Below, one piece after another: positions 38,200 through 59,407 of a DNA stretch of 64,000 nt (position 1 is the stretch's first letter; every line of letters begins with the position of its first letter). The stretch is from positions 614 to 64,613 of the forward strand of contig BQJN01000005.1 of NCBI GenBank assembly GCA_021604725.1, read 5' to 3'. The stretch comes from Lysobacteraceae bacterium (GTDB lineage: Bacteria; Pseudomonadota; Gammaproteobacteria; Xanthomonadales; BQJN01). The translations under genes were made by a program, and so were the position numbers. The notes beneath the pieces are model-generated. The model saw only the letters and a list, made by a program, of their open reading frames with translations. It ran no database searches and had not been told where the DNA came from.

Positions 38200-39501
38200 A
38201 TGAACCCAGAATCCTGGAACAATGTGCTGGATCGTCTGGCGGCGGAAATTGGCGAGCAGGATCTCAATACCTGGATTCGCCCCTTGCAGCCGAAGCGAGC
38301 CGGTTCAGCGGTAGTCTTGCTGGCACCGAACGGGTTTGTCCTCGATAGGGTGCAAAGTGACTATTTTGATCGCCTGCGCGAACTGAGTCTGCACTTCGAT
38401 CCAAGTTCAGAATCGGTTCGGCTCGAGGTCGGTGATTCGGCCAGCTTCGATTCCAGTCCCGCAGCGGCCGCGAAAACCGAACCGAGCTACCTGGACGCGC
38501 GATACACTTTCGACAATTTCGTCGCCGGTTCTTCCAACCAACTGGGCCGAGCCGCAGCCATGCAAGTGGCGGCCAACCCCGGTGGGGCATATAACCCGCT
38601 GCTTTTATATGGCGGAACGGGCCTGGGCAAGACGCACCTTTTGCATGCTATCGGCAATGAAGTGGTGCGCGCTCGACCGACGGCCCGTGTTGTCTATCTA
38701 CATAGTGAGCAGTTTGTCAGCGACATGATCCGCTGTTTGCGCCACAACACCATCGAACAATTCAAGAATCGCTATCGCAGCGTCGATACCTTGTTGATTG
38801 ATGACATTCAGTTCTTTGCCGGCAAAGAACGTACGCAAGAAGAATTTTTCCATACCTTCAATACATTACTCGGTCTCAAACAACAGATCGTTCTCACCTG
38901 CGATCGCTATCCGAAAGAAGTAGAAGGCATAGAAGCGCGCTTGAAGTCGCGGTTTGGCTGGGGTCTTAATGTCCCAATCGAGCCACCTGATTTTGAGACT
39001 CGCGTCAATATTTTGCTGTCCAAGGCTCAGGAAAAGGGTGTTGAGTTGGCTGAAGATGTTGCTTATTTCATCGCCAAGCCACTGCGGTCCAATGTGCGTG
39101 AACTAGAGGGTGCACTGCACTCTTTGGCGGCAAATGCCAATTTTCGACAGCGTGAGATCACGATCGATTTCGCCAGAGAAACGCTGCGCGATCTACTGAC
39201 CGTGCACAAGCGCCTGGTTACCGTGACCAATATTCAAAAGACAGTAGCCGATTACTACAAACTGCGAATTAGTGACCTGTTGTCGAAAAAAAGGAATCGT
39301 TCAATTGCGCGGCCACGTCAAATGGCGATGGCGCTAGCCAAAGAGTTGACCGACCATAGTCTGCCGGAAATTGGTGAGCACTTCGGCGGTCGTGATCACA
39401 CCACGGTGTTGCACGCGTGCCGAAAAATTAAGGAATTGGTGGAGACTGACGCCCGAATTCGCGATGATCGGAAAAAATTGATGCGGTCATTGACGGCGTA
39501 G
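38200..39501 (+). CDS. dnaA: Chromosomal replication initiator
   Basis: [40 protein letters not shown]. Confidence 0.99.
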
Positions 39502-39730
39502 AAATGGCGTGGATGAAACGTGTATGGTTGACCTCAATGCCTGTGGATAAACTGTCGACAACTGTCAGAGACCTAGTTATCCACATTTGGTCAACAGGAA
39601 TCGATGCACATTACGCACATCGAAAATGACTTTAAGTTTATGTTTTTATTGAGAAAAAATTAGATTTCCCGATATTAACAGGCCTTACTACTACTAGTTT
39701 TATTAAATATAGATCAGGAATAATAGGACA
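39502..39730. other. Probable oriC (dnaA-dnaN intergenic)
   Basis: Perfect DnaA boxes 39542-50 and 39577-85, degenerate boxes 39553-61 and 39611-19, AT-rich tract 39625-39715 with GGCC + TAC trios. Confidence 0.85.
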
Positions 39731-40831
39731 ATGAAATTCAGCATCCAGAGAGAGGTTTTGCTGCGTCCGTTGAGCCAAGTCGTTGGTGTCGTCGAACGTA
39801 GGCAGACATTGCCGGTATTGGCAAACTTGTTAGTTGTCGCCCGTGAAGGTGAGCTACGCCTGACTGGGACTGATCTGGAAGTTGAGTTGGTTGCCTCAAC
39901 AGAGCTGGAAATCGAACAGGAAGGTGAGGTCACAATACCTGCTCGAAAATGGCTCGACATCTGTAGAGCGCTGCCCGATGGCACAACCATCAACATGAGT
40001 TTGGCTGAAAGCAAAATGACATTGCGAGGGGGTAGCAGTCGATTTACCTTGTCGACTTTGCCAGCATCGGAATTTCCCACCATTGATGATGTTGAAACCA
40101 ATGATCAGGTTCAGATTGAACCAAAGAGTCTAAAGCAGGCGATTGAACATACAGCGTTCGCTATGGCGCAACAGGACGTTCGCTATTATCTCAATGGTAT
40201 GTTGCTCGAGCTAAGGGCTGATGGGGTGCGGTGTGTTGCCACCGATGGCCACCGCTTGGCTATCAGTGAAGTAGAGGCTTCAATTGAAATCGATGATATG
40301 CGTCAAATCATTGTGCCAAGGAAGGGTATTGTTGAGCTGCAACGCCTGCTCGATTCGGGCGACGAATTTGTCACTGTACGCATCGGTCGCAATCATGTTC
40401 GAGTGATACTGGGTAGCAGTGTATTTACATCCAAACTAATTGACGGCCGCTTTCCTGACTATGAATCAGTGATACCTATTGGGGCGGATCTCAACGTTGA
40501 TGTCGATCGTGTTGGTTTGTTGGAGGCACTGAATCGGGCCGCCATTTTATCCAATGAAAAGTACCGTGGCGTAAAGTTTGAGTTGAAGCCAGGTAGTTTG
40601 CGTATCGTCGCTCACAACCCCGAGCAGGAAGAGGCGGTCGAAGACTTGCAGGTTGAACACTCGGTCAGTGATTTAGCGGTAGGCTTTAACGTGGGCTACG
40701 TGCAGGACGCTCTGGGGTCTTTAGACGGTGATGAGGTGAGACTACGCTTCAAGGACTCGAACTCCAGTTGCCTAATCAGTGAAGTTGAACACACCAAGAC
40801 ACGACACGTGGTCATGCCGCTAAGGCTATAG
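39731..40831 (+). CDS. dnaN: DNA polymerase III beta clamp
   Basis: RQTLPVL, TDLE, ATDGHRL, GRFPDY, VMPLRL. Confidence 0.99.
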   Translation: MKFSIQREVLLRPLSQVVGVVERRQTLPVLANLLVVAREGELRLTGTDLEVELVASTELEIEQEGEVTIPARKWLDICRALPDGTTINMSLAESKMTLRGGSSRFTLSTLPASEFPTIDDVETNDQVQIEPKSLKQAIEHTAFAMAQQDVRYYLNGMLLELRADGVRCVATDGHRLAISEVEASIEIDDMRQIIVPRKGIVELQRLLDSGDEFVTVRIGRNHVRVILGSSVFTSKLIDGRFPDYESVIPIGADLNVDVDRVGLLEALNRAAILSNEKYRGVKFELKPGSLRIVAHNPEQEEAVEDLQVEHSVSDLAVGFNVGYVQDALGSLDGDEVRLRFKDSNSSCLISEVEHTKTRHVVMPLRL

Positions 40832-40921
40832 ATTCGGTATTTGGGCGTGCGACTGGCGAACGCCCAATGGTCAGGAACAACGTTGCCGTGGTCGTCTATT
40901 TGAGTTTCGCGGTCGTCAATA

Positions 40922-41992
40922 ATGTTCGTTAGTCGTCTGGACATCGTCGGTCTTCGCAATCTTGACGTAACTGAACTGCCGTTATCGCCCGGCCTGAATC
41001 TATTTCAGGGTGCCAACGGCGCTGGCAAGACAACAGTCGTAGAAGCATTGTTCATGCTTGGCCATGGACGTAGCTTTCGCGCCAGAAACCACACCGACCT
41101 GGTGGCCTACAATCGGAAACAGGCGACCATTTTCTGTCAACTGCAAGCCGACCACCGTACGCATCAACTGGGTTTGCAGAGGGATGCGTCTGGCACCGTA
41201 GTAAAGATTGACGGCGAATCAGCTTCGCTGGCAGATGCTGGCCGTCTATTGCCTCTGCGTCTATTTGAGCCCAATAGTCACGAACTTATTGATGGAGCGG
41301 CGGGTGGTCGTCGCCAGTTTCTGGACTGGGGCGTGTTCCACGTGGAACATTCGTTTCTGGCGGGTTGGCGCAGGTATCAGGCGGCGGTTCGGCACAGAAA
41401 TGCGCAGCTTAGGAAGGGCGCTTCGGATAGGGAGCTATCTGCATTCGAACCCGAATTAGCGCGGTTGGCATCACAGATAACGGAACAAAGGCGCAACTAC
41501 ATTGAACAGTTGGTGCCAGTTTTCGCATCGGTAGTTGAGGGGCTAACGTCCAAGCTGGATGTGAACCTCAAGTTTTATCAAGGTTGGGGCGAGGGTCAGT
41601 CATTGGCGGATCGTCTGGCTCAGGGACGTGTTGAAGATAGAAATCGCGGCCACATGATATCTGGCGCACATCGTGCCGACCTTAAGGTAATCGATGAACA
41701 TGGTACCGTCGTGCGCCGCTATTCGCGGGGACAAACCAAAGTAGTCGCTCTGGCCCTGGTGTTGGCGCAACTTCAGTTGCACACCACATTGACTGGAAAG
41801 AAGGCAGTGCTGTGCCTCGATGACGTTGCGGCCGAATTGGACGGTCTGCACCAGCAACGTTTGTTTTCCTGGTTAGACAATGAAAGACCGCAAGTTTTCG
41901 CAACCAGTGTCAACCGCCCAGAGCAACTAGACGCGTGGACTGGTGAGGTCGCAGTGTTCCACGTGGAACACGGAAAAATTCGCGCTGCGTGA
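40922..41992 (+). CDS. recF: DNA replication/repair protein RecF
   Basis: GANGAGKT, GRSFR, RRQFLDW, SRGQ, LDDVAAELD. Confidence 0.97.
   Translation: MFVSRLDIVGLRNLDVTELPLSPGLNLFQGANGAGKTTVVEALFMLGHGRSFRARNHTDLVAYNRKQATIFCQLQADHRTHQLGLQRDASGTVVKIDGESASLADAGRLLPLRLFEPNSHELIDGAAGGRRQFLDWGVFHVEHSFLAGWRRYQAAVRHRNAQLRKGASDRELSAFEPELARLASQITEQRRNYIEQLVPVFASVVEGLTSKLDVNLKFYQGWGEGQSLADRLAQGRVEDRNRGHMISGAHRADLKVIDEHGTVVRRYSRGQTKVVALALVLAQLQLHTTLTGKKAVLCLDDVAAELDGLHQQRLFSWLDNERPQVFATSVNRPEQLDAWTGEVAVFHVEHGKIRAA
41334..41349. other. parS centromere site 1
   Basis: Perfect palindrome TGTTCCACGTGGAACA inside recF. Confidence 0.92.
41955..41970. other. parS centromere site 2
   Basis: Perfect palindrome TGTTCCACGTGGAACA at the recF 3' end. 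Confidence 0.92.
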
Positions 41993-42014
41993 TACAATAC
42001 TCAATTGCTATTAA

Positions 42015-44483
<2,469 letters not shown>

Positions 44484-48476: not shown

Positions 48477-48679
48477 CGAAAATTCTTGAACTTGCAAGGC
48501 GGCCGGATAGTTTACCTAGCAGGGGGCTGAAATACACGGCAAGTCGCCGATTGAAGCGGTCAATTGTCAACAAATGGCTGCAAACAGGGCTCGGTATCCA
48601 CCAAGATGGCTAGCAATTGGCGATTAATTGGTCTGGAAAACGCTACAATCGATGTCATGTCGACCATGAGCCCCAAGCA

Positions 48680-50515
48680 ATGAGCACCAAGGCCAAACAA
48701 CGCGACCCTGTTTCCAATGCTGTGCGGTCAGCCGCTGGCGCCGTTCGCTTCAACGGTCGTCTGAATCTTGCAGACACGCTCAAAGGCCTCGTTCAGGATG
48801 GTTTAATCACGGAAAAAGAAGGCCTGGCCGTTCGCGCTCAGGTATCTGGCGAGAACCGTGTTGATATCCATCCAATGGTGCTGATCGCCAATCAAAAGCT
48901 GACCAACCATCAGAGCAACAAACCGCTGACACTGGAAATCCTGACTCAGTGGTTAAGCACGCGTTCTGGTCTGCCCTATTTAAAAATCGACGTGATGAAG
49001 ATTGATGTGGCGCGCGTCACTGACGTCATTTCGCACGCCTATGCCTCTCGCTATCGAATTTTGCCGATCAGCGTCAGCTCAGAACAGGTCCAGTTTGCGA
49101 CCAGTGAGCCGTTTGCCACCGATTGGATCGACGACCTGAAACATATCCTCAGGCGCGATATTGACCTCTGCGTTGCCAGCCCAGTCGACATCAATCGCTA
49201 TTTGATGGAGTTCTACGGCGTCAATCGTTCGGTGAAAAAAGCCAGCGATGCGAAAATGACGGCTGAGGGCGATGCTGTCATCAATTTTGAGCAGCTGTTG
49301 AACCTGGGAGAGGCCGGCAAGCTAGGTGCTGACGATCACCACATCGTGCATATCGTGGACTGGTTGTTGCAGTTTGCCTTTGAGCAGCGCGCATCGGATA
49401 TCCACCTTGAACCGCGGCGCGAAATGTCCAATATCCGTTTTCGCATCGATGGCCACTTGCACACGGTGTACAAAATACCGACGCCAGTGATGGCTGCGGT
49501 GACTAGCCGCATCAAGATCCTGGGGCGCATGGATGTGGCAGAAAAGCGTCGACCTCAGGATGGTCGCATCAAGACACGCACGCCAATTGGTCAGGAAGTA
49601 GAGCTGCGCCTGTCAACCATGCCTACCGCGTTTGGTGAAAAGTGCGTGATGCGCATTTTCGATCCGGAAGTGGTGGCCAAGGACTTTGGCTACCTCGGTT
49701 TCAGTCAACGCGAAACCGAAATTTGGCGCCACATGATCGAACGCCCGCACGGTATCGTTTTGGTCACTGGCCCCACCGGATCGGGCAAGACCACCACGCT
49801 TTACTCAACGCTGAAGTATCTGGCTCGACCGGATCTGAACTTGTGCACCATTGAAGATCCGATCGAAATGGTCTCCGGCGACTTCAACCAAATGCAAGTC
49901 CACCACGCCATCGGCCTCGATTTCGCCGCCGGTGTGCGCACGCTGATGAGACAGGACCCGGACATCATCATGGTTGGAGAGATTCGCGACCTGGAGACGG
50001 CGCAAATGGCGATTCAAGCGTCACTCACCGGTCATCTGGTGCTGTCGACCTTGCACACCAATGACGCGCCCTCGGCCCTGGTTCGGTTATTGAACATCGG
50101 TGTTCCGCACTATTTGCTGCAAGGCACGCTGGCCGGCATCACCGCGCAACGACTGGTTAGAACACTGTGTCCGCACTGCCGCAAACCGACCGATACCGAT
50201 ACCGATGAATGGGAGTCGCTGGTCCATCCATGGACGGCAAAGCCTCCAAAGCAGGTGATGAAGGGCGTTGGCTGCGTGGAGTGTCGCAAGACCGGCTTCC
50301 TGGGTCGAACCGGCATCTACGAGATGCTGCCATTTGATCAAAAAATGCGCGACGCTGTACGCGCCGACTCCGGCATCAGCGAGCTACAGAAAGTTGCCCG
50401 GGAAGAGGGCATGCGACCACTGCGCCTGGGTGCCGCTGAATTGGTGGGCAAAGGAAAAAGTACCATTGCCGAGGTGTCCAAGGTGTTGCCGCCGGAGTAC
50501 AGCACTTCGACATGA
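48680..50515 (+). CDS. GspE/PulE/PilB-family ATPase, stand-alone
   Basis: ASDIHLEP, PQDGR, GPTGSGKTTT, EDPIE, RQDPD, LHTND, CPHC/CVEC Zn site. Confidence 0.93.
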   Translation: MSTKAKQRDPVSNAVRSAAGAVRFNGRLNLADTLKGLVQDGLITEKEGLAVRAQVSGENRVDIHPMVLIANQKLTNHQSNKPLTLEILTQWLSTRSGLPYLKIDVMKIDVARVTDVISHAYASRYRILPISVSSEQVQFATSEPFATDWIDDLKHILRRDIDLCVASPVDINRYLMEFYGVNRSVKKASDAKMTAEGDAVINFEQLLNLGEAGKLGADDHHIVHIVDWLLQFAFEQRASDIHLEPRREMSNIRFRIDGHLHTVYKIPTPVMAAVTSRIKILGRMDVAEKRRPQDGRIKTRTPIGQEVELRLSTMPTAFGEKCVMRIFDPEVVAKDFGYLGFSQRETEIWRHMIERPHGIVLVTGPTGSGKTTTLYSTLKYLARPDLNLCTIEDPIEMVSGDFNQMQVHHAIGLDFAAGVRTLMRQDPDIIMVGEIRDLETAQMAIQASLTGHLVLSTLHTNDAPSALVRLLNIGVPHYLLQGTLAGITAQRLVRTLCPHCRKPTDTDTDEWESLVHPWTAKPPKQVMKGVGCVECRKTGFLGRTGIYEMLPFDQKMRDAVRADSGISELQKVAREEGMRPLRLGAAELVGKGKSTIAEVSKVLPPEYSTST

Positions 50516-51234
50516 CACAGGTTCTATTAATCCAAACCGGCAACACCTTGCCGAGCATTGCCGAGAAGGAAGAGGATTTTGACCTTTGGTTCAAACGCAG
50601 CATGGCACCCGCTGTGCTCGACGTTCGACAAGTCCACAATCAACAGGCTTTGCCCGATCCGGGCCAGGTTACCGCAGCGGTCGTTACCGGTTCTCCGGCG
50701 ATGGTCAGCCATCGACATCCATGGTCTGAACAAACAGCGGCATGGATACGAGAATTCGTGCCCTTGGGTCGACCATTGCTGGGGGTCTGTTATGGGCACC
50801 AACTCATAGCCCACGCACTGGGCGGCATGGTTGGACCCAACCCGCATGGTCGCGGCATTGGTACCGTTGGCGTCACGTTTGAATCAACGGCAAGCGGTGA
50901 TGCGCTGTTCGGCGGCTTGGTTGGTGCTACCGTGAATGCACAAATCAGTCACGTTGAAGCTGTTCTAGAGCGGCCACCAGGCGCTGTGGCAATTGGTCGA
51001 TGCGATCATGATCCCAATCACGTGTTGCAGTTTGGGCCGTGTACATGGGGCGTACAGTTTCACCCAGAGTTTACAGAATCGATCACTCGTGGCTACGTAC
51101 AAGGACGGATCCAGGCACTGCAAGCTGAAGGTATCGATACTGACGCCGTTATGGCTAGTATCGTAGACACGCCGGTCGCAGCGGCGTTATTGAGCAAATT
51201 TATTGAGATTGTGGGAATCAGAAATGCCGCATAG
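50512..51234 (+). CDS. Class I glutamine amidotransferase (GMP-synthase-like)
   Basis: VTGSP, GVCYGHQ, VQFHPE catalytic triad. Confidence 0.9.
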   Translation: MTQVLLIQTGNTLPSIAEKEEDFDLWFKRSMAPAVLDVRQVHNQQALPDPGQVTAAVVTGSPAMVSHRHPWSEQTAAWIREFVPLGRPLLGVCYGHQLIAHALGGMVGPNPHGRGIGTVGVTFESTASGDALFGGLVGATVNAQISHVEAVLERPPGAVAIGRCDHDPNHVLQFGPCTWGVQFHPEFTESITRGYVQGRIQALQAEGIDTDAVMASIVDTPVAAALLSKFIEIVGIRNAA

Positions 51235-52840
51235 TCAGTTGTTAACAAGCCTGGTTCTGGCATTTTTCCTGAACCAAACCGCTCTGGCAGAGACCGTCGT
51301 CGAGATCCATCCCAGCGATTTGCAGCAGGTAAGGCAAATGCTGCAGGCAAACCCGCTGACAACGACAACGGACCGCGGCAACATTGTACTGATGCGGCTT
51401 GATGATTCGCAGCGTCAGCTGCTGCAACAAAGCGCTATCAATTTTCGTGTAAATACCGATGAAACCCTGGCCTTCAATGCCGACCTGGCCGTTCGTGGCG
51501 TTGGTACCATTCCCGGCTATGCCTGCTATCGAACGGTAGAACAAACATACGCTGATCTGGCCGATCTGGCTGCTGCCAATCCGACGCTGGCGAGCTGGCA
51601 TGACATTGGCGATAGTTGGGAAAAAGCTCAAGGCCTGGGTGGTCATGACGTTATGGCGCTGACCATTTCCGCCAACAGTGGCACATTGGGTGGAAAAGCG
51701 CCGCTGGTCATCATCGCGGCGATGCATGCACGGGAATTGGTTACGGCGGAGACTGCAACTCGTTTCGCCGAACACCTGATCAACAACTATGGATCAGATC
51801 CGGATATCACCTGGATCCTGGACCACCGCATCATTCACATCGTTCCACAGCTCAATCCCGATGGTCGGTTGGACGTCGAACAAGGCGATCTGTGGCGGCG
51901 CAAGAACGCCGATGTCGACTGGTGTCCGACCGATGACTTTGGTGTGGATCTGAATCGAAACTCTAGTTTTGCCTTTGGTGGCGGTGGGTCATCGGGATTC
52001 TCTTGCGATCCAACGTTTCGCGGACCCTCGGCGGCTTCGGAACCCGAAATTGCTGCCATCGAAGCGGCAATGGTCAATTGGTTTGAAGACCAAAGAGGCA
52101 CGTCAATTAACGACCCGGCGCCGGCCGATACCGAAGGCGTATTCATTTCCTTGCATTCATATGGACAACTGGTTCTGTTTGCCTGGGAATTCGACGATAT
52201 GCCTGCTCCGAACAAGACAGAGATGGAAACCCTGGCCCGGAAATTCGGTTACTACAACGACTATCAGGCCTGCCAGGATTGCCTGTACTCGGCAGCTGGC
52301 ACGACGCCTGATCAGGCCTATGGTGAATATGGTGTTGCTGCGTACACATTCGAATTGGGAACCAGCTTTCATCAAAGTTGCAACGCGTTCGAAAACACCA
52401 TCTATCCCGACAACCTGGAGGCCCTGGTGTATGCAGCGAAGGCCGCGCGACGTCCCTATCAGGAACCACAAGGCCCAGAGGCTTATAGTGTTGCCATTGA
52501 AAAGCCACTCGGTGAAGCGATGGCTACATTGACTGCGGTAGTTGACGACACCCGTTTCGACAGCAATGGCTGGGGCAACGAACCCGTGCAGACGATCGCC
52601 AGTGTGGTCTACAGTATCGATGTTGCGCCCTGGATGGCTGCCGGTACTGCGATGCAGCCGGTTGATGGCACTTTCGACAATTCTGTTGAAGCCGTGACAG
52701 CGAGTATAGACACCAGTGCGTTGGCCTATGGTGACCATCTGGTCTACGTCGCCGCCACTGACAGCAATGGCAATACCGGTGTGCCGACGGCCGTGTTCCT
52801 GCATGTCGATGATGTGTTTTTCTTGGGCAACTTCGACTAA
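51224..52840 (+). CDS. Secreted M14-family zinc carboxypeptidase
   Basis: Signal peptide; HARE, NPDG, WRRKN, GVDLNRN, LHSYG, FELG; Ig-like C-terminal domain. Confidence 0.9.
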   Translation: MPHSQLLTSLVLAFFLNQTALAETVVEIHPSDLQQVRQMLQANPLTTTTDRGNIVLMRLDDSQRQLLQQSAINFRVNTDETLAFNADLAVRGVGTIPGYACYRTVEQTYADLADLAAANPTLASWHDIGDSWEKAQGLGGHDVMALTISANSGTLGGKAPLVIIAAMHARELVTAETATRFAEHLINNYGSDPDITWILDHRIIHIVPQLNPDGRLDVEQGDLWRRKNADVDWCPTDDFGVDLNRNSSFAFGGGGSSGFSCDPTFRGPSAASEPEIAAIEAAMVNWFEDQRGTSINDPAPADTEGVFISLHSYGQLVLFAWEFDDMPAPNKTEMETLARKFGYYNDYQACQDCLYSAAGTTPDQAYGEYGVAAYTFELGTSFHQSCNAFENTIYPDNLEALVYAAKAARRPYQEPQGPEAYSVAIEKPLGEAMATLTAVVDDTRFDSNGWGNEPVQTIASVVYSIDVAPWMAAGTAMQPVDGTFDNSVEAVTASIDTSALAYGDHLVYVAATDSNGNTGVPTAVFLHVDDVFFLGNFD

Positions 52841-52935
52841 GAGCAACTCGAAATCGGCAGTGGCGTGGCTGGCTTCGCCTATCGCTGTCCATATTTGACT
52901 AGTATGCTGCGGTGGTGAACGTAGACTTCATCACC

Positions 52936-54348
52936 ATGGAACAAGCCACTAACAGCAGCAACTTTGCCGCGCTCGATCCCGAGGTGTTGGAGCAGGCGCG
53001 CGTGTCGCGCGATCGTCGTTTCGATGGTCGATTCTACGTCGCTGTACTCACCACGGGCATTTATTGCAGGCCGATTTGTCCGGCGCGCATGCCGCGCCGG
53101 GAAAACGTGCGCCTATTCGCATCAGCCGCCGGCGCAGCCGCTGCCGGCTACCGGCCCTGCCGTCGTTGTCGGCCGGAGTATGCGCCGGGTACCGATGCGC
53201 CGTCGACCGAGTTGGTTGGACGGGCGATGGCGCGCATTGAATCGGGTTGGTTAGACCATGAATCGCCATCCGAGCTGGCGGGCCATTTCGGCATCAGTCG
53301 CCGTCACCTCGACCGACTATTCCAGGAGGTGGTCGGCGCGACTCCAAACGATGTCGCACGAACCAGGCGTTTGCATGCGGCTCGCCGATTATTGGATGTC
53401 GACGGCTTGACCTTGAGTGAAATCGCTCTCGCCGCCGGCTTCCCGTCCTACCGCACCTTTGACCGAGAACTACGCCAGGTCTATGGGCTATCGCCCGGTC
53501 AACTTCGCAAGGACCCACGACCGCAAGCCAGGTCTGCGGTGAACAAGCTGCAGATTCGTCTGACCCAGCCCTATGATTGGGTTCACTGGCTCGGCTTTAT
53601 GCGTAGTCGATCGATCGAAGGCATCGAGCAGGTCGATGGCGACAGTTACCAACGGACCACTGAACAGGGATTTCTAAAGATCAACCGCATCAACATGACC
53701 GTCGTTAGCGTCGAATTTACCAATCATGAAGGTGCGTTGGCCGAAGATTACCAACAGGTGAAAAAGCTGTTGGACGCTGACGCGCCAGTTGCAACTATCG
53801 AAGCGCGACTGGTAGACGCTGGACTGGGTATAGTTGCCAGGCAACCCGGCCTTCGAGTCCCTGGTTGTTGGGACCGGTTTGAGTTGGCCGTTCGCGCCAT
53901 TGTTGGCCAACAGGTGTCCGTGGCTGGTGCTCGCACCGTACTCGGAAGAATCGTTCGTCGTTTTGGCACCGAGCGCAGCGACGGCAAGTACAACTTCCCG
54001 TCACCAGAGCAGCTGGCCCAAGCCGAAACCATCGACCTCAACATGCCGCGTTCACGCGCCAATAGCTTGATTGCACTGAGTCGCCAGGTCGCTGAAGGTG
54101 ACCTGGATCTGAGCGGAGACATCGAAGCTGTCAAGCAACAGTTACTGGACCTGCCTGGTATCGGTCCGTGGACGGTCGGTTACATCGCCATGCGCGCCTT
54201 GGGTGATCCGGATGCCATGCCCCACAACGATCTGGCGCTGGTCAATGCCTGGAAAACCTTAAGCGATCAACCGCTAATGGAAGCGGCGAAGCAATGGCAG
54301 CCCTGGCGTGCCTATGCCGCAATGCACCTTTGGAGTCATCAATCATGA
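52936..54348 (+). CDS. Ada Zn-binding/AraC - AlkA DNA glycosylase fusion
   Basis: TTGIYCRPIC, RPCRRC, AraC HTH, GQQVSV, HhH LPGIGPWT, WQPWRAYA. Confidence 0.93.
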   Translation: MEQATNSSNFAALDPEVLEQARVSRDRRFDGRFYVAVLTTGIYCRPICPARMPRRENVRLFASAAGAAAAGYRPCRRCRPEYAPGTDAPSTELVGRAMARIESGWLDHESPSELAGHFGISRRHLDRLFQEVVGATPNDVARTRRLHAARRLLDVDGLTLSEIALAAGFPSYRTFDRELRQVYGLSPGQLRKDPRPQARSAVNKLQIRLTQPYDWVHWLGFMRSRSIEGIEQVDGDSYQRTTEQGFLKINRINMTVVSVEFTNHEGALAEDYQQVKKLLDADAPVATIEARLVDAGLGIVARQPGLRVPGCWDRFELAVRAIVGQQVSVAGARTVLGRIVRRFGTERSDGKYNFPSPEQLAQAETIDLNMPRSRANSLIALSRQVAEGDLDLSGDIEAVKQQLLDLPGIGPWTVGYIAMRALGDPDAMPHNDLALVNAWKTLSDQPLMEAAKQWQPWRAYAAMHLWSHQS

Positions 54349-54866
54349 ATTATTGTTATCACCTATCACCGCTGGGCCCGTTGCTGTTGGTCGGCGATGC
54401 TTCGGGGTTGTGGAAAATTGGCTTTCCCGAAGGCAAGGGAAAAGTCGAGCCGAGCGCGGATTGGGTTGAGTCAACATCAGGCCTGGAAACGGCACGGCAA
54501 CAACTTGACGAATACTTCGCTGGCGATCGACAGGTCTTTGACTTGAAACTAAAGCCACAAGGTACGAATTTTCAGTTGCAAGTATTGGCTGCGCTGCAGA
54601 CCATCCCGTTTGGCAACACAGCCAGTTACGCCGAAGTGGCCGAAAAAATCGGCCGCCCCAAAGCGGTCCGAGCGGTCGGTGCCGCCAATGGCCGAAATCC
54701 GTTACCCATTGTCATCCCCTGTCATCGCGTGATCGGTGCCAATGGTTCACTCACCGGTTTCGGCGGCGGTATGGCGGCCAAGTCTTATCTGTTAAGTTTG
54801 GAAGGCGCGCTGCCAGCAACGACGAACCGAGATCTATTTGAGCAAGCCAACAATACAGACAGCTGA
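54345..54866 (+). CDS. ogt: Methylated-DNA--protein-cysteine methyltransferase
   Basis: GTNFQ, RAVGAANGRNP, IPCHRV. Confidence 0.95.
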   Translation: MNYCYHLSPLGPLLLVGDASGLWKIGFPEGKGKVEPSADWVESTSGLETARQQLDEYFAGDRQVFDLKLKPQGTNFQLQVLAALQTIPFGNTASYAEVAEKIGRPKAVRAVGAANGRNPLPIVIPCHRVIGANGSLTGFGGGMAAKSYLLSLEGALPATTNRDLFEQANNTDS

Positions 54867-54912
54867 AAGTGGATTGGTCATTGCCATGCAGGTCGAGTCT
54901 TTTGCCGCCTGT

Positions 54913-55061
54913 GAGGCTGTTGCGAAACTGCAGCCGTCTCGATACACGGACGTATCGCAGATTTCGATGGGCCCTAAGCCATTGAAATGTAAGGAACCCG
55001 ATAACCACGCTTCTCGGGTTCCGTGGTGTTGCTAGACCAGGACCGACGATTGCAACACCTT
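54913..55061 (+). mobile_element. MITE-like repeat family A, copy 2 (uninterrupted, ~149 bp)
   Basis: GAGGCTGTTGCGAA...TTGCAACACCT; colinear with 28945-29253. Confidence 0.75.
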
Positions 55062-55199
55062 GCTATGCAGAACAAGCGGCCAAATCGAGGTTTCGATGAA
55101 AACCATGGTCCCTCAATTGATGCCTGCTCGCCGGCAATTCGATTCCGCCTTCCGTGGCAGAATCCTCATCGCGTTGGACGGTCGAGTCAACTACCCACC

Positions 55200-57812
55200 T
55201 TAGCGAGTCGTTGTTCCAAACCCATCAGCGAATAGTTGATCAATTGCACCGGCCAACTGCACCGCATAAGCACCCCGGCCGCGCGTGAACAGTGCCAAGG
55301 TGGTGGCACCGCGATCGATCGCCATATCCCAGATCATCACCGACGGCAGTCCAGCAGTGAACTTTTGCCAGACCGGTTCGGTTGCTGAAACATCATTTGT
55401 GAAGTACAGGCCCCAATCGGTGCCAGCGAAGACTTGGCCCGGCATGTTCGGGTTAACCATCACCGAGTTGGCGGGAATATCGGGAAGATTGCCTGATTTG
55501 TTGCGCCAGGTGAAAGTGGTGCAAAACGCATCGTCACACTCGACCTCGTAGATGTGGCCTGGTGTGGTCGGTGTATTTGCATCGAAGCCACCGACGGCCG
55601 CATAGAAAACATCGGTTCGTGTGCCGTGGGAAACGACATCCATGATCGGTCGGTTTGGTAGGTCAAGGTTGCCATCGGTCAGGTCGACCCAAGTGGCAGA
55701 ATTCGCGACGCCTTGACCCATACCGAAGCCGACCTGAACGTTGCCGTCGTTGGTTCCTGCAATCGCAATGCTCGGGTCCGGGATAGCGTGACTGAGCTGG
55801 TTGATGTAAGAGCGGTCCGCCAAAACGCCTTTGCTTAGATCCGGGCTGTTTGGATACCAGGATGAGCCATTCAAGCCACCAGTGATAGTCTCGAATACTC
55901 GGTTGGTAGCTGCCAACATCTGATCGCAGGTGGCGTTCGGGCAATCGTGCTTATGGATCTCAAAAGCGAACAGGAATGGCAACACGCTATCGCTTTCCCA
56001 CGGCCAATTTGATCCATTGTAGGGGCCGAAGGGGCCGTTGGTGCTGACCGCCATGTTGCCGCGCTGCGATTCTACATACCAACGGTTGCCTTGCTTGGGC
56101 TCGATTCGCGCATAGATGCCGTCACCGCCAAATACGTGGGTCCAGCCCACCGCCGAACGCTCGCCTTGGAAGGTGGCCACTGATGAGCCATTGTCCTGGG
56201 CACCGCCTGCAGCTGCGCCATCATGTCGGAAGGCGAACTCCTGACTGATGTCACCAGAGTAGAACTCGATGGTAGATAGCGACTCGGTCAATTGGGTGAA
56301 CTCGACTTGCGTTGCAGAAGGGGCGTCGGCGTTGTCCGAGTAGTAAATTCCGCCATCGCTACCAATCAAGATTCGGGATGGATCGCCATCAACGTAAGCT
56401 CGAGAATGGTGGTCAACGTGGACGAAATCCCCAGTGCCCGGTCCGCCAGCATAGCCGCAGGTGACATTGGTGAAGGTATCGCCGCCATTGTCAGAGCGAA
56501 AAAGATCAACCGTCGACATGTAAACCGTGTCCGAATCGAGCGGGTCGACCGACAGGCCCTGGTCGTACCAATTCTGCCCCCAATCACCGAAGCAACCCAA
56601 CAGATCGCTTGCCGTGGCGCGTTGTTGCCAGGTAACGCCGCCATCGGTTGTGCGCCAAACACCTAGCAAACCGCGCGTGCTCGGTGAGGCCACTTCGGCG
56701 TAGATAACGTCGTTGTCGGACGGCGCCATGGCGATATCTATCCGGCCCAGCGGGTTGTTTGGAAAGCCAACGCCGCCGCCGGTGCCACCTGGCCAACCGT
56801 TATCCGACCGACTTGATAGCGAGAAATCCATTGGGCAGCCACTGACTGGCAATGTGCCATAGTAGATGCCGTTGGCACCGCTCTCAGTTAGATCGGGTTG
56901 CACCGTTGTGTTGTGGCCGCGAGTACCAATCGCGACAACAAGCTCAGTATGCGTCGTGCGATCGATGGCCAGCAAACCAGTGGTGTCTTGACGTTGATCA
57001 CTAAATCCATTGGTGTAGCAGGGGCCATCCCAGTTCTGGCCGGCATCGTATGAAAGGTACAAGCCTGTCTTGGTGCCGACGATCACATTGTCTGAGTCAC
57101 GCGGGTCAACCACCACCTTGCCGATGGCTTGATACTGTGGGAAATTGCCGGCCGGTTGGTCGTAGACGGCATTGAACACATCCTCGCCCAGAATCTCCCA
57201 GCTGGCACCGCCGTTTGTGGTCTTGAGCAGGCCAGCACTACCGAACGAGAAGCTGCCGTAACGCAGGTCGCCGGTGCCGGCATAAAGAATATTCGGATCA
57301 GCCGGGTCCATGGTCATGTCGCCGATGGCGATGCTGTTTAGGGATGGGTCGTCGGTGGTTGGAAACCAGGTCGTATTGCTGTCGCAACAGTTCGTCGTTT
57401 TCCAAACGCCGCCACCATCGCTGCCGAAATAGGCAACTGAATCATCGCTTGGATCGCTGATGATCACATTGACGCGGCCGCCATAGTTGCTTGACCCACT
57501 CTCCAGCGGCTTCGGACCCAATGACACGAAACGGTCATCAGGCAGGATGCCGTCAAAGCCCAAGCCTTTTGCGGCACGCTCAACAACACCGGCAGGCAAG
57601 CCCCGCTCGATGGCTTGATCCTGCAGACGAGCCGCTGCAATCCAGCGTCCGTCGAACTGAAATGTTGGGTAGGTCAAGCGAACGGCCCAGTCATCACCAT
57701 CGGCTGGCGATTTTCCAGGCTTGCGTGGCGTCTCGGCTTCCGGCCACATTGCGATAGTGCCGGCCAGGACCAAAACGGCGGCACATAGCCGCCAGTAAAT
57801 TGAACTACCCAT
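55200..57812 (-). CDS. Secreted BNR/Asp-box beta-propeller protein (VPS10/GH74-like)
   Basis: Signal/anchor; GGRV, GGVWKT, repeated KTTNGG.SW, SYDAG..W, RTTDGG.TW, RSDNGG.TF, HVDHH. Confidence 0.85.
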   Translation of the reverse strand: MGSSIYWRLCAAVLVLAGTIAMWPEAETPRKPGKSPADGDDWAVRLTYPTFQFDGRWIAAARLQDQAIERGLPAGVVERAAKGLGFDGILPDDRFVSLGPKPLESGSSNYGGRVNVIISDPSDDSVAYFGSDGGGVWKTTNCCDSNTTWFPTTDDPSLNSIAIGDMTMDPADPNILYAGTGDLRYGSFSFGSAGLLKTTNGGASWEILGEDVFNAVYDQPAGNFPQYQAIGKVVVDPRDSDNVIVGTKTGLYLSYDAGQNWDGPCYTNGFSDQRQDTTGLLAIDRTTHTELVVAIGTRGHNTTVQPDLTESGANGIYYGTLPVSGCPMDFSLSSRSDNGWPGGTGGGVGFPNNPLGRIDIAMAPSDNDVIYAEVASPSTRGLLGVWRTTDGGVTWQQRATASDLLGCFGDWGQNWYDQGLSVDPLDSDTVYMSTVDLFRSDNGGDTFTNVTCGYAGGPGTGDFVHVDHHSRAYVDGDPSRILIGSDGGIYYSDNADAPSATQVEFTQLTESLSTIEFYSGDISQEFAFRHDGAAAGGAQDNGSSVATFQGERSAVGWTHVFGGDGIYARIEPKQGNRWYVESQRGNMAVSTNGPFGPYNGSNWPWESDSVLPFLFAFEIHKHDCPNATCDQMLAATNRVFETITGGLNGSSWYPNSPDLSKGVLADRSYINQLSHAIPDPSIAIAGTNDGNVQVGFGMGQGVANSATWVDLTDGNLDLPNRPIMDVVSHGTRTDVFYAAVGGFDANTPTTPGHIYEVECDDAFCTTFTWRNKSGNLPDIPANSVMVNPNMPGQVFAGTDWGLYFTNDVSATEPVWQKFTAGLPSVMIWDMAIDRGATTLALFTRGRGAYAVQLAGAIDQLFADGFGTTTR

Positions 57813-57985
57813 TCGATTCTCCCACGGAGTTAGTGTTTTTCGATCAGCGCAGCAGTGTGCCACGAATGGTGTGATGAAATGGTGAAAAAGTATTCAAGCT
57901 AACAAGACTGCTTCTGCCGTCCGCTCGCAGCACCGGAATGTCTGCTACGATGCGCGATCGATTACCATCAACAAAGAGGGATGTC

Positions 57986-59407
57986 ATGACATTCAAAGGC
58001 ATGGGTATTGTTGTTGCGCTGCTGGCTAGCTGGGGAGTCAATGCCGCTACCGAACAAGTAAGAGAACTTAACGGCACACTTTATGAAAAGCAGCGGGGCC
58101 AATGGATTCAAGTCGAATCCAGTGGTGATCGCTACGCTGTTGATTCTCGCGTCATCACCGTGAAATTTAAGCAAACGGCCGCTCGCAGCTCGCAATCTCA
58201 GCTGCATACCGCGATGAGAGGCTTCCCGATTCGCGAAGCGATTACCGGGTTCATCGATGTCGAACTGGCTCCGGATGACGATCCATTGGCTGCAGTTGAG
58301 CGTTACCTTGCCAGTGGTCTGGTTGAAGTGGCTGAGCCAAACACTTTTGGTGTGTACCATGCACTACCCGATGATCCCGACTACGGAACACAGTGGTACC
58401 TGCCTCAAGTGCGCGCCGAGGTACCTTGGGATTTTGCCACCGGTGATCCGAGTGTGGTGGTCGCGGTGCTCGATTCGGGCACCGAGTTCACGCACGAGGA
58501 CCTGGGGCTCGGTGCCGATGCGTACCAAAACGTGTGGCTTAACCCAGGCGAAGATGCCTGGAGTGATCCGGATGATCCCACCACAGGCAATGGTATCGAC
58601 GATGACGGCAATGGTTATGTCGACGACTGGAAAGGCTATGACTTTGACAGTGACAACAACGATGGTAGCGGCTCGTTTTTCCACGGTACCGCGGTGGCCG
58701 GCGTGGTGTCGGCAAAGTCCAACAATGGGATAGGTATCGCCAGTGTTGCTGGTGGCTGGAATGGCCCGGGAGCCAAAGTGATGATTGGTGGCGTTGGTGA
58801 ATCTGGGCCGAATGGCTCGGTTCTCGATGACGCCATTCTTTATGCGGCCGAGAACGGTGCCAACATTGTGCAGATGAGCTTGGGGGTTGGCACCAGCGCT
58901 GCCATTGATGCGGCCTTGCAAATGGCCTACGACACTTACGGTGTTTTGATTGTCTGCTCCTCCGGAAACAACGGCGACGATCAGGTTGGATATCCATCCT
59001 CTGATGAGCACGTGATTTCAGTTGGAGCAACCAGCCAATCGGATGCTCGAGCGAGCTTTTCTGAGCATGGACCCGGGGTTGAACTATCAGGTCCCGGCAC
59101 CTCGATTTTCACCTTGGACCTGTTCAATAGCTACGGTTCAACCAGTGGCACATCATTCTCCGCGCCTCTGGTTTCCTCTGTGGCAGCGCTGCTTTGGTCG
59201 TACGAACCGAGCTTGACCAATGTCGAGCTTCGGCAGTTGTTGCGAGACACCGCAGCCAGAACCGGGGGTTACGACTATAACTGGAACAAGGCGATGCCCG
59301 GTCACTCTTATGAACTGGGCTACGGCCGTGTTGATGCCTACCGAGCACTGTTTGCGCTGCTGCCCGACGTACTACAGGACAACGGGTTCGAGATACCAGG
59401 CAACTAA
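57986..59407 (+). CDS. Secreted S8 subtilisin-like serine peptidase
   Basis: Signal peptide; triad VLDSG, HGTAVAG, GTSFSAP; NGIDDDGNGYVDD insert. Confidence 0.93.
   Translation: MTFKGMGIVVALLASWGVNAATEQVRELNGTLYEKQRGQWIQVESSGDRYAVDSRVITVKFKQTAARSSQSQLHTAMRGFPIREAITGFIDVELAPDDDPLAAVERYLASGLVEVAEPNTFGVYHALPDDPDYGTQWYLPQVRAEVPWDFATGDPSVVVAVLDSGTEFTHEDLGLGADAYQNVWLNPGEDAWSDPDDPTTGNGIDDDGNGYVDDWKGYDFDSDNNDGSGSFFHGTAVAGVVSAKSNNGIGIASVAGGWNGPGAKVMIGGVGESGPNGSVLDDAILYAAENGANIVQMSLGVGTSAAIDAALQMAYDTYGVLIVCSSGNNGDDQVGYPSSDEHVISVGATSQSDARASFSEHGPGVELSGPGTSIFTLDLFNSYGSTSGTSFSAPLVSSVAALLWSYEPSLTNVELRQLLRDTAARTGGYDYNWNKAMPGHSYELGYGRVDAYRALFALLPDVLQDNGFEIPGN

Follow-up and report, generated by a model that had tools for sequence, protein, structure and literature searches.

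A widespread, uncatalogued terminal tag on exported proteins of a Lysobacteraceae bacterium and its order

Three tailed genes within 8.2 kb

A 64,000-nucleotide stretch of the genome of a Lysobacteraceae bacterium (assembly GCA_021604725.1, contig BQJN01000005.1, positions 614 to 64,613; hereafter the window) carries, inside 8.2 kb, three genes whose products (an S8 subtilase, an M14 carboxypeptidase and a propeller of BNR/sortilin-like type) all end in the pattern D-x-h-[F/Q]-x-x-[GN]-F-[DEG] (h, hydrophobic residue). The analysis reported here concerns this nine-residue end, referred to below as the tail or the DGFE tail, which proved to be a real, widespread and uncatalogued terminal tag of exported proteins. 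The three genes and their tails, the latter scored with the position-specific scoring matrix (PSSM) described below, are as follows.

51203-52840, + strand: M14 zinc carboxypeptidase gene (open reading frame and translation; PF00246, E 7.3e-45); true start likely the ATG at 51224
52811-52837, + strand: M14 tail DVFFLGNFD, with the stop codon directly after it; 16.1 bits
55200-57863, - strand: BNR/sortilin-like beta-propeller gene (sub-threshold Sortilin-Vps10 and F510_1955 glycosylhydrolase matches); start likely the ATG at 57812
55215-55241, - strand: propeller tail DQLFADGFG, followed by TTTR (55203-55214) and the stop; 22.2 bits
57938-59407, + strand: S8 subtilase gene (PF00082, E 4.3e-43); start likely the ATG at 57986
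59366-59392, + strand: S8 tail DVLQDNGFE, with Q at the place of the first F; IPGN (59393-59404) and then the stop come after it; 21.4 bits

The translated gene ends confirm all three tails at the positions given by an initial annotation of the sequence, and its family assignments hold for the M14 and S8 proteins, while the propeller draws only the sub-threshold matches listed above. Provided that the internal starts are taken, all three proteins have the signal-peptide-like N-termini which that annotation had described, and no C-terminal hydrophobic stretch was found in the M14, propeller or S8 protein, in agreement with the reported lack of a C-terminal transmembrane (TM) helix. A window-wide scan detected the motif on no other protein of the window, which bears out the remark that cytoplasmic proteins of this region are free of it.

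The M14 protein consists of a catalytic domain, a C-terminal immunoglobulin (Ig)-like domain and the tail, which is kept in homologues of 66% (P0002) and 58% (P0003) identity; a paralogue of the propeller in the same genome (C8:28750, given as contig and position) is likewise tail-ended. The M14 protein was modelled with AlphaFold2 from a 30-row alignment (mean predicted local distance difference test, pLDDT, 84); the strands of the Ig-like domain (residues 419-528) stand at pLDDT 93-97, and the final block (531-538) stands at 57 and is not packed on that domain. The tail is thus predicted to be flexible or unstructured.

The tail in the genome, the order and more distant lineages

The whole genome was scanned (4.68 Mb on 210 contigs), with 3762 genes called by a codon-bias model and covering 87% of the DNA. 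The regular expression (regex) put forward in the initial annotation gave 47 matches in 21,461 open reading frames of at least 80 residues, 13 of them flush with the stop codon, and the regex matches were used to build a 12-column PSSM with a cut-off of at least 14 bits, a match being counted as C-terminal within 20 residues of the protein end. Among the 3762 proteins, the PSSM detected 73 C-terminal matches (~2% of the proteome), 10 matches in the first 60 residues (N-terminal) and 29 internal ones, whereas the reversed-sequence control yielded 10 matches in total and none at the C-terminus; the scan of the last 20 residues that had been suggested as a check therefore lies far above chance. 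At the DNA level, the pattern D-x-h-F-x-x-x-F-[EDG]-stop occurs 20 times in the genome versus once for its backwards control. Across many protein families and genomes, the tag is real and subject to selection.

The conserved columns of the PSSM are D0, hydrophobic 2, F3, [DSN]5, [GNS]6, F7 and [EDG]8, and the consensus reads D-x-[ILV]-F-x-[DNS]-[GNS]-F-[EDG] in this genome and h-F-x-D-G-F-E elsewhere. The 73 tails include 26 that are flush with the stop, 11 that are followed by one residue and 25 by two to five. The motif also stands directly behind the signal peptide in at least five proteins (C75:12364, C70:18707, C70:17261, C7:47044 and C48:19965), and further copies lie inside large secreted proteins. 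Because the tail is unpacked in the model and copies follow signal peptides or lie internally, the motif, as far as its placement in the sequences tells, needs no free carboxylate and behaves as an exposed short linear motif.

Carriers of the tail are enriched in export signals, as the initial annotation had expected. A strict heuristic called a signal peptide in 45 of the 73 tail proteins versus 967 of 3762 overall (odds ratio 4.8, p 7e-11), and a lax one did so in 29 of 32 regex-tail proteins versus 1815 of 3762. Many of the 28 tail proteins missed by the strict heuristic have visibly signal-like N-termini or lie at contig ends, and the few cytoplasmic-looking carriers (e.g. C102:6070 and C186:432) are probably false matches. 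The carriers are diverse: the 73 proteins match 91 Pfam families, including right-handed beta-helix (7), S8 (4), FG-GAP, M12B-like peptidases and several propellers, and the NCBIfam matches include choice-of-anchor Q (10), myxosortase-dependent M36 (5), rhombosortase-dependent M36 (4) and choice-of-anchor I (2).

No Pfam or NCBIfam model of the tail was found with whole proteins (the three window proteins and the 73 carriers) or with 45-residue C-terminal stretches at E<=10, which settles the search for an existing model that had been proposed at the outset. Similarly, no CTERM model matched the three proteins (E<=0.1) or the 45-residue C-terminal stretches (E<=10). The tag was not found in the literature by full-text searches for motif strings or under the topics of Xanthomonadales C-terminal sorting signals and Wenzhouxiangella secretion, and it is not mentioned in the available portion of the genome and proteome paper on Wenzhouxiangella AB-CW3 (PMC7691419).

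The distribution of the tail was followed in a sample of 151 genomes of the order, each searched with the exact-terminal DNA pattern and a backwards control. The statement in the initial annotation that such tails are frequent in some Xanthomonadales can be extended, in that the tail is common in most families of the order. The exact form reaches 10-78 copies per genome in most of families f3, f4, f9, f10 and f11 (controls 0-2) and is present in 5 of 17 f12 genomes; it is essentially missing from family f2, whose genus g13 has it in 0 of 8 genomes. The named homologues, from Wenzhouxiangellaceae, Marinicella and a Lysobacterales MAG, suggest that the order is Lysobacterales (Xanthomonadales). 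Two apparent gaps in the distribution are lineage variants. In genus g7 (genomes G006, G037, G055 and G097; loci L232-L243), Gly is replaced by Arg to give F-x-D-R-F-E, with 21-83 matches per genome versus 0-2 for controls, and in seven of 10 sampled loci the motif is C-terminal, trailed by 1-6 residues; this clean lineage-wide switch could be used for finding a co-varying reader. In some members of family f8 the first Asp is missing and the tails read h-F-x-D-G-F-E; of 30 loci sampled there, 22 lie at most six residues from the stop. A version of ~20 residues occurs in Acidobacteriota-like genomes, namely metagenome-assembled genomes (MAGs) of Multivoradales and Thermoanaerobaculia.

Homologues of the window proteins indicate what else may occupy the position of the tail. 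The 120 listed S8 homologues share a common catalytic-domain end and diverge afterwards; the tail classifier, which misses some extended tails (e.g. P0123 and P0124), assigned short tails to 33 and extended tails to 29 of them, and 11, one of which is from Marinicella litoralis, carry two tandem copies. In 22 of the 120 (15 with PF18962 and 7 with PF13860), a type IX secretion system (T9SS)-type C-terminal domain (CTD) stands in the same place as the tail, and another group ends in a different short motif, W-P-x-x-V-S-I-x-D-L. To judge from these protein ends, the tail replaces known C-terminal sorting domains in homologues. Past the shared final strand of the Ig-like domain, the M14 homologues end in the following ways.

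Gammaproteobacteria and Lysobacterales MAGs (L103, L125, L132): short tail
Multivoradales and Thermoanaerobaculia MAGs (L083-L085, L092, L108): h-F-x-D-G-F-E-S-G-D-x-S-x-W-S-x-x-x-P-stop
Myxococcota and one Deinococcales MAG (6 loci): no tail, the protein ends there
Chloroflexota: short tails of other kinds

Since these endings differ by lineage past an identical strand, tail type, as read from the aligned ends, follows lineage and not protein family. Some of the other endings, which follow the shared domain ends in other phyla (homologues P0050-P0119 and P0187-P0214 and loci L086-L162), also look uncatalogued; among the S8 proteins an example is W-P-x-x-V-S-I-x-D-L-x-P, and among the M14 proteins of Chloroflexota there are [FY]-[FL]-P-[LIV]-[IV]-x-x as well as G-E-F-D-F-x-L-x-P-G-[SNQ].

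Described sorting signals and candidate readers

The tripartite tags (PEP-CTERM/exosortase, GlyGly-CTERM/rhombosortase, MYXO-CTERM, IPTL-CTERM and LPXTG/sortase) are, like the DGFE tail, lineage-restricted and found on many unrelated cargoes with signal peptides, with one presumed reader, and some tail carriers match models of two choice-of-anchor types (Q and I) or of M36 peptidases named as myxosortase- or rhombosortase-dependent. However, tripartite tags consist of a motif, a TM helix and a basic cluster, whereas the tail has neither helix nor basic cluster: the three window proteins have zero or four residues after the motif, and 37 of the 73 carriers end zero or one residue after it, which leaves no room for a helix. 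The tail, unlike these tags, also occurs at the mature N-terminus and in tandem, and no sortase-like enzyme is linked to it. A second exported set in the same genome ends in [IV]-P-[TAS]-L-x-x-W, followed by a hydrophobic helix and a basic cluster (for example C80:8532-16151, C118:5006-6406, C37:4865-5986, C8:34051-35589, C4:55794-57320 and C70:19468-21576, all on other contigs). These ends resemble what we take to be IPTL-CTERM, and the genome appears to run a helix-type sorting signal beside the DGFE tail.

The T9SS CTD (PF18962, Por_Secre_tail, and the PF13860, FlgD_ig, type) occupies the identical place in homologues and, like the tail, is not itself a membrane anchor. It differs in being a folded beta-sandwich of ~70-100 residues that is read by the T9SS and removed by PorU, whereas the DGFE tail comprises nine flexible residues. 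PF18962, TIGR04183 and PF13860 gave no match to any window protein of the three, and the 25 Pfam families seen most often in the 73 carriers include none of them. C25, the sole T9SS part searched, was detected in 1 of 13 genomes of g27, the most tail-rich genus, and in 0 of 6 genomes of f5 and f6. Further from the tail are type I secretion substrates, which have no N-terminal signal peptide and an uncleaved C-terminal signal of ~50 residues, often with RTX repeats, whereas DGFE carriers are enriched in signal peptides, and the beta-signal of outer-membrane beta-barrels, which is a terminal aromatic residue, whereas the DGFE tail ends in E, D or G on soluble enzyme folds. Because the defining features of the tripartite tags and of the T9SS CTD were looked for and are absent, the tail, which would work like a C-terminal sorting signal, is nonetheless outside every described class.

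[quoted passage not shown] The present case is alike in that the GspC PDZ domain was modelled on the Ig-like domain of the M14 protein, and unlike in that many tail proteins have no Ig-like domain before the tail and that some tail-bearing genomes lack a detectable PDZ-type GspC.

This genome encodes its own PDZ-bearing GspC, in a gspC(HR+PDZ)-gspD-gspE-gspF cluster on contig C17, and a second, longer secretin lies on C60. The C-terminal 101 residues of this GspC match the solved PDZ domains of PulC, OutC and EpsC (E 9e-19 to 5e-14). Across the 151 genomes, GspD is above cut-off in 148 and the HR domain of GspC (PF11356) in only 104, and at the level of families the PDZ part of the GspC found here is distributed as PF11356 is. 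The tail follows the same pattern to a considerable extent: GspC was found in 80 of the 81 genomes with at least five exact tails, 35 of the 47 genomes without GspC have no tail match, and under a wider motif definition 95 of 105 positive genomes have GspC. At finer resolution, the five tail-positive genomes of f12 are exactly its five GspC-positive genomes, and in genus g40 one genome (G094) has both tail and GspC and another (G078) neither. For Xanthomonas XpsC, a single helix is reported where the PDZ domain would be (PMC11981180), in keeping with the tail-free families.

When the GspC PDZ region was modelled in complex with M14 residues 415-538, the score was 0.62, versus 0.00 for the best of three controls; 58 of 80 solved complexes and 2 of 110 mismatched pairs reached the score mark, counts that apply only approximately, since the alignments were our own. 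Contact agreement between runs is at least 62%, the partner has a pLDDT of at least 75, and the confident contacts join PDZ residues 17-30 and 66-77 to the Ig-like domain (416-527), at its final strand and its sheet. This interface matches the published VesB case, in which the PDZ-dependent information is in the Ig-fold. The model thus supports the M14 protein as a putative cargo of the PDZ-type T2SS, and a reading of the tail by the PDZ domain falls outside that support.

Two other candidate readers were tried and rejected. The C25 (PorU-family) peptidase as an obligatory reader agrees with the tail in f12 (5/5) but was unseen in 12 of 13 g27 genomes and found in 0 of 6 in f5 and f6; PF01364 occurs in 73 of the 151 genomes, and its cross-tabulation with the tail is weaker than that of GspC. 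C25 presence follows the tail within f12 and f8, but not in f10, f5 and f6. This gammaproteobacterium has seven PF01364 (C25 gingipain/PorU-family) matches, one with an internal motif copy; five of the seven are at C35:954-1967, C35:13006-14151, C18:43431-44576, C16:3346-4365 and C8:10850-11866. The second candidate, a jelly-roll paralogue without the first strand (C18:27828-28583), was considered as a receptor by strand complementation, and a single query found homologues in only 10 of 151 genomes. This Cys-rich paralogue lies in the stretch C18:23534-28583 (L163, L167), beside four or five genes that look sulfotransferase-like by eye.

Gene neighbourhoods do not point to a reader. No envelope machine was found within three genes on either side of the 73 tail genes, and no secretion cluster adjoins the three genes within the window. 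The recurrent neighbours, as identified by eye, are kinase-like proteins of ~800-900 residues (8), response-regulator-like proteins (6) and ECF-sigma-like proteins (4). Pairs of a protein of ~800-900 residues and one of ~200 residues lie within three genes of 8 of the 73 tail genes (e.g. C119:2672-5646, C65:17109-20478, C55:12789-15934 and C49:8487-11440); by eye they look like a Ser/Thr kinase and an ECF-sigma factor, which suggests dedicated regulation of some tail proteins. In the window itself, a lone GspE/PilB-like ATPase gene (632 residues, 48617-50515) is set two genes upstream of M14, its surroundings being free of further pilus or secretion genes, and the genes at 38200-44483 resemble dnaA, dnaN, recF and gyrB by eye and probably mark the replication origin region.

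Functional readings of the tail

The tail is in all likelihood a functional tag of some kind, and we give a probability of roughly one in two to the reading that it is an address or retention label that acts after Sec. In the mechanism that we propose, the carriers, which are mostly degradative enzymes, would leave via Sec, bound for the cell surface or the medium; the exposed short linear tail on the folded protein would be recognised by an envelope component; and binding would either hand the folded protein to an outer-membrane export route or keep it at the surface afterwards. We infer that the tail is read by a protein and that the route is type II secretion, the best candidate being an extra T2SS with a PDZ-bearing GspC. 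A tie between the tail and the PDZ-type T2SS is less likely than not; that the tail is a transferable linear cargo signal for the PDZ-GspC one of two co-resident T2SSs is unlikely, and direct binding of the tail by the PDZ domain is more doubtful still. The sorting-tag proposal of the initial annotation therefore stands in part: the shared terminal motif without TM helix, its enrichment on proteins with signal peptides and its position at the place of the T9SS CTD hold, and a sorting role with a dedicated reader is a candidate interpretation.

Several observations weigh against an address or retention label and its link to type II secretion. The role is proposed from position, enrichment and distribution, and the signal-peptide calls are home-made heuristics applied to home-made gene calls. 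None of the candidates examined (gene neighbourhood, C25, the jelly-roll paralogue and the GspC PDZ domain) yielded a reader. The PDZ domain is a doubtful direct reader, as the modelled interface excludes the tail (529-538) and tail-positive genomes without a PDZ-type GspC exist. Among the latter are seven f8 genomes without a PF11356 match, which have a single T2SS and a GspC-like protein with a coiled coil replacing the PDZ domain, as well as three Multivoradales MAGs and one Thermoanaerobaculia MAG with 34-69 F-x-D-G-F-E matches and no PF11356 match; conversely, no tails occur in two f2 genomes that possess a divergent GspC. The co-occurrence may reflect clade history, because related genomes are not independent and C25 splits f12 in the same way. 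Finally, the occurrence of the motif after signal peptides, internally and in tandem, together with the likeness of the extended tail to MAM-type domains, leaves room for a structural or vestigial origin.

This last point underlies the alternative that the tail is the first strand of a lost MAM/LamG-type jelly-roll, or an edge-protecting strand, which is kept for fold or stability and read by no machine. The N-terminal strand of such jelly-rolls (PF00629, PF20773) follows h-F-x-D-D/G-F-E-S-G-x-x-x-W, and the extended tail is a domain start in homologues: in M14 homologues of Arenicellales, Promineifilaceae and one Anaerolineaceae MAG, the position of the tail runs into a complete domain of 173 residues, which starts with I-F-F-D-D-F-E-S-N-x-G-W and ends with A-A-V-D-D-V-x-I. 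This domain has a sub-threshold match to Pfam MAM (E 1.2e-4, 22.4 bits against a cut-off of 26.4), with the profile start on the motif. The top structural matches of its low-confidence model (mean pLDDT 60) are the MAM domains 2v5y and 8yt7 at Z 9.7, which is just over the usual background of 7-8 (root-mean-square deviation 3.0-3.3 over 132-133 aligned residues); residues 1-64 have pLDDT <50, at which the conformation of the motif within the domain is unreadable. In the present genome, one internal motif copy precedes an InhA-like MAM domain, and two adjacent small secreted proteins (C70:17261-19465; L071 and L072), flanked by a 1153-residue S8 protease and a propeller whose own tail is of the helix type, open with one short copy followed by one extended copy; they close on a strand like the last one of a jelly-roll and have no Pfam match. 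The tag thus resembles the opening strand or strands of a MAM/LamG-type jelly-roll, employed without the rest of the domain, whether by descent or by convergence. However, the complete jelly-roll is a beta-sandwich of ~160-190 residues, whereas the tail has only its first 9-20 residues, after which the gene ends, and is predicted to be unpacked. It is found behind folds that have no relation to one another (Ig-like domain, beta-helix, propeller and the catalytic domain of S8), stands in tandem at the very end of some proteins, and keeps its key residues in dozens of unrelated families and more than 100 genomes, where a useless remnant would decay. In addition, three of the four MAM-like domains of this genome have a tail of their own behind them. 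We therefore consider a remnant or structural strand unlikely.

The tail could also act without a reader, if an acidic and aromatic end sticks to surface polymers of the cell (e.g. lipopolysaccharide or exopolysaccharide, through divalent cations) or to other tails and thereby holds enzymes on cells or vesicles. Three acidic and two aromatic positions are conserved, the tandem copies suggest avidity, and a tail-rich genus uses the G-to-R variant. For Wenzhouxiangella AB-CW3, the authors detected no proteolytic activity in the medium and assumed outer-membrane-anchored proteases (PMC7691419); an S8 homologue from Wenzhouxiangellaceae carries the tail, but the AB-CW3 observation is tied to tail proteins by inference only. 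Nine residues are, moreover, few for polymer binding, and folded enzymes would still require an export route, which makes a purely adhesive tail improbable. Protection of the protein end or quality control, in which an acidic Gly-Phe-Glu/Asp end blocks carboxypeptidases and tail-specific proteases or marks proteins for turnover, would suit the many peptidases among the carriers (including the M14 carboxypeptidase) and a final motif residue that is nearly always D, E or G. It is very unlikely, however, as it leaves unexplained the conserved upstream D, h-F and G-F, the copies at mature N-termini and the 47 of 73 tails with 1-18 further residues. An artefact of chance, composition or wrong gene ends, for which only the shortness of the motif speaks, can be dismissed for practical purposes, given near-zero reversed-sequence and backwards-pattern controls and a C-terminus that is set by the stop codon and not by gene calling.

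The preferred reading thus remains that of an address or retention label on exported proteins. Time and again, new envelope machines have come to light through sorting tags at C-termini, among them the T9SS, rhombosortase, exosortases and sortases. Here, a short anchor-free tag without a Pfam or NCBIfam model is found on dozens of proteins per genome across an order, with a longer form in other phyla, and its distribution, which follows one T2SS subtype, makes the long-standing question of cargo choice by the T2SS testable. If the tail were a cargo signal for the PDZ-type T2SS, type II secretion would have its first linear signal of general scope, one that tells which folded periplasmic proteins exit by which T2SS, and the G-to-R and 20-residue variants would track changes in the reader. 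The tag would also improve localisation prediction and annotation for many environmental proteolytic bacteria, and it could serve as a small handle for export or display.

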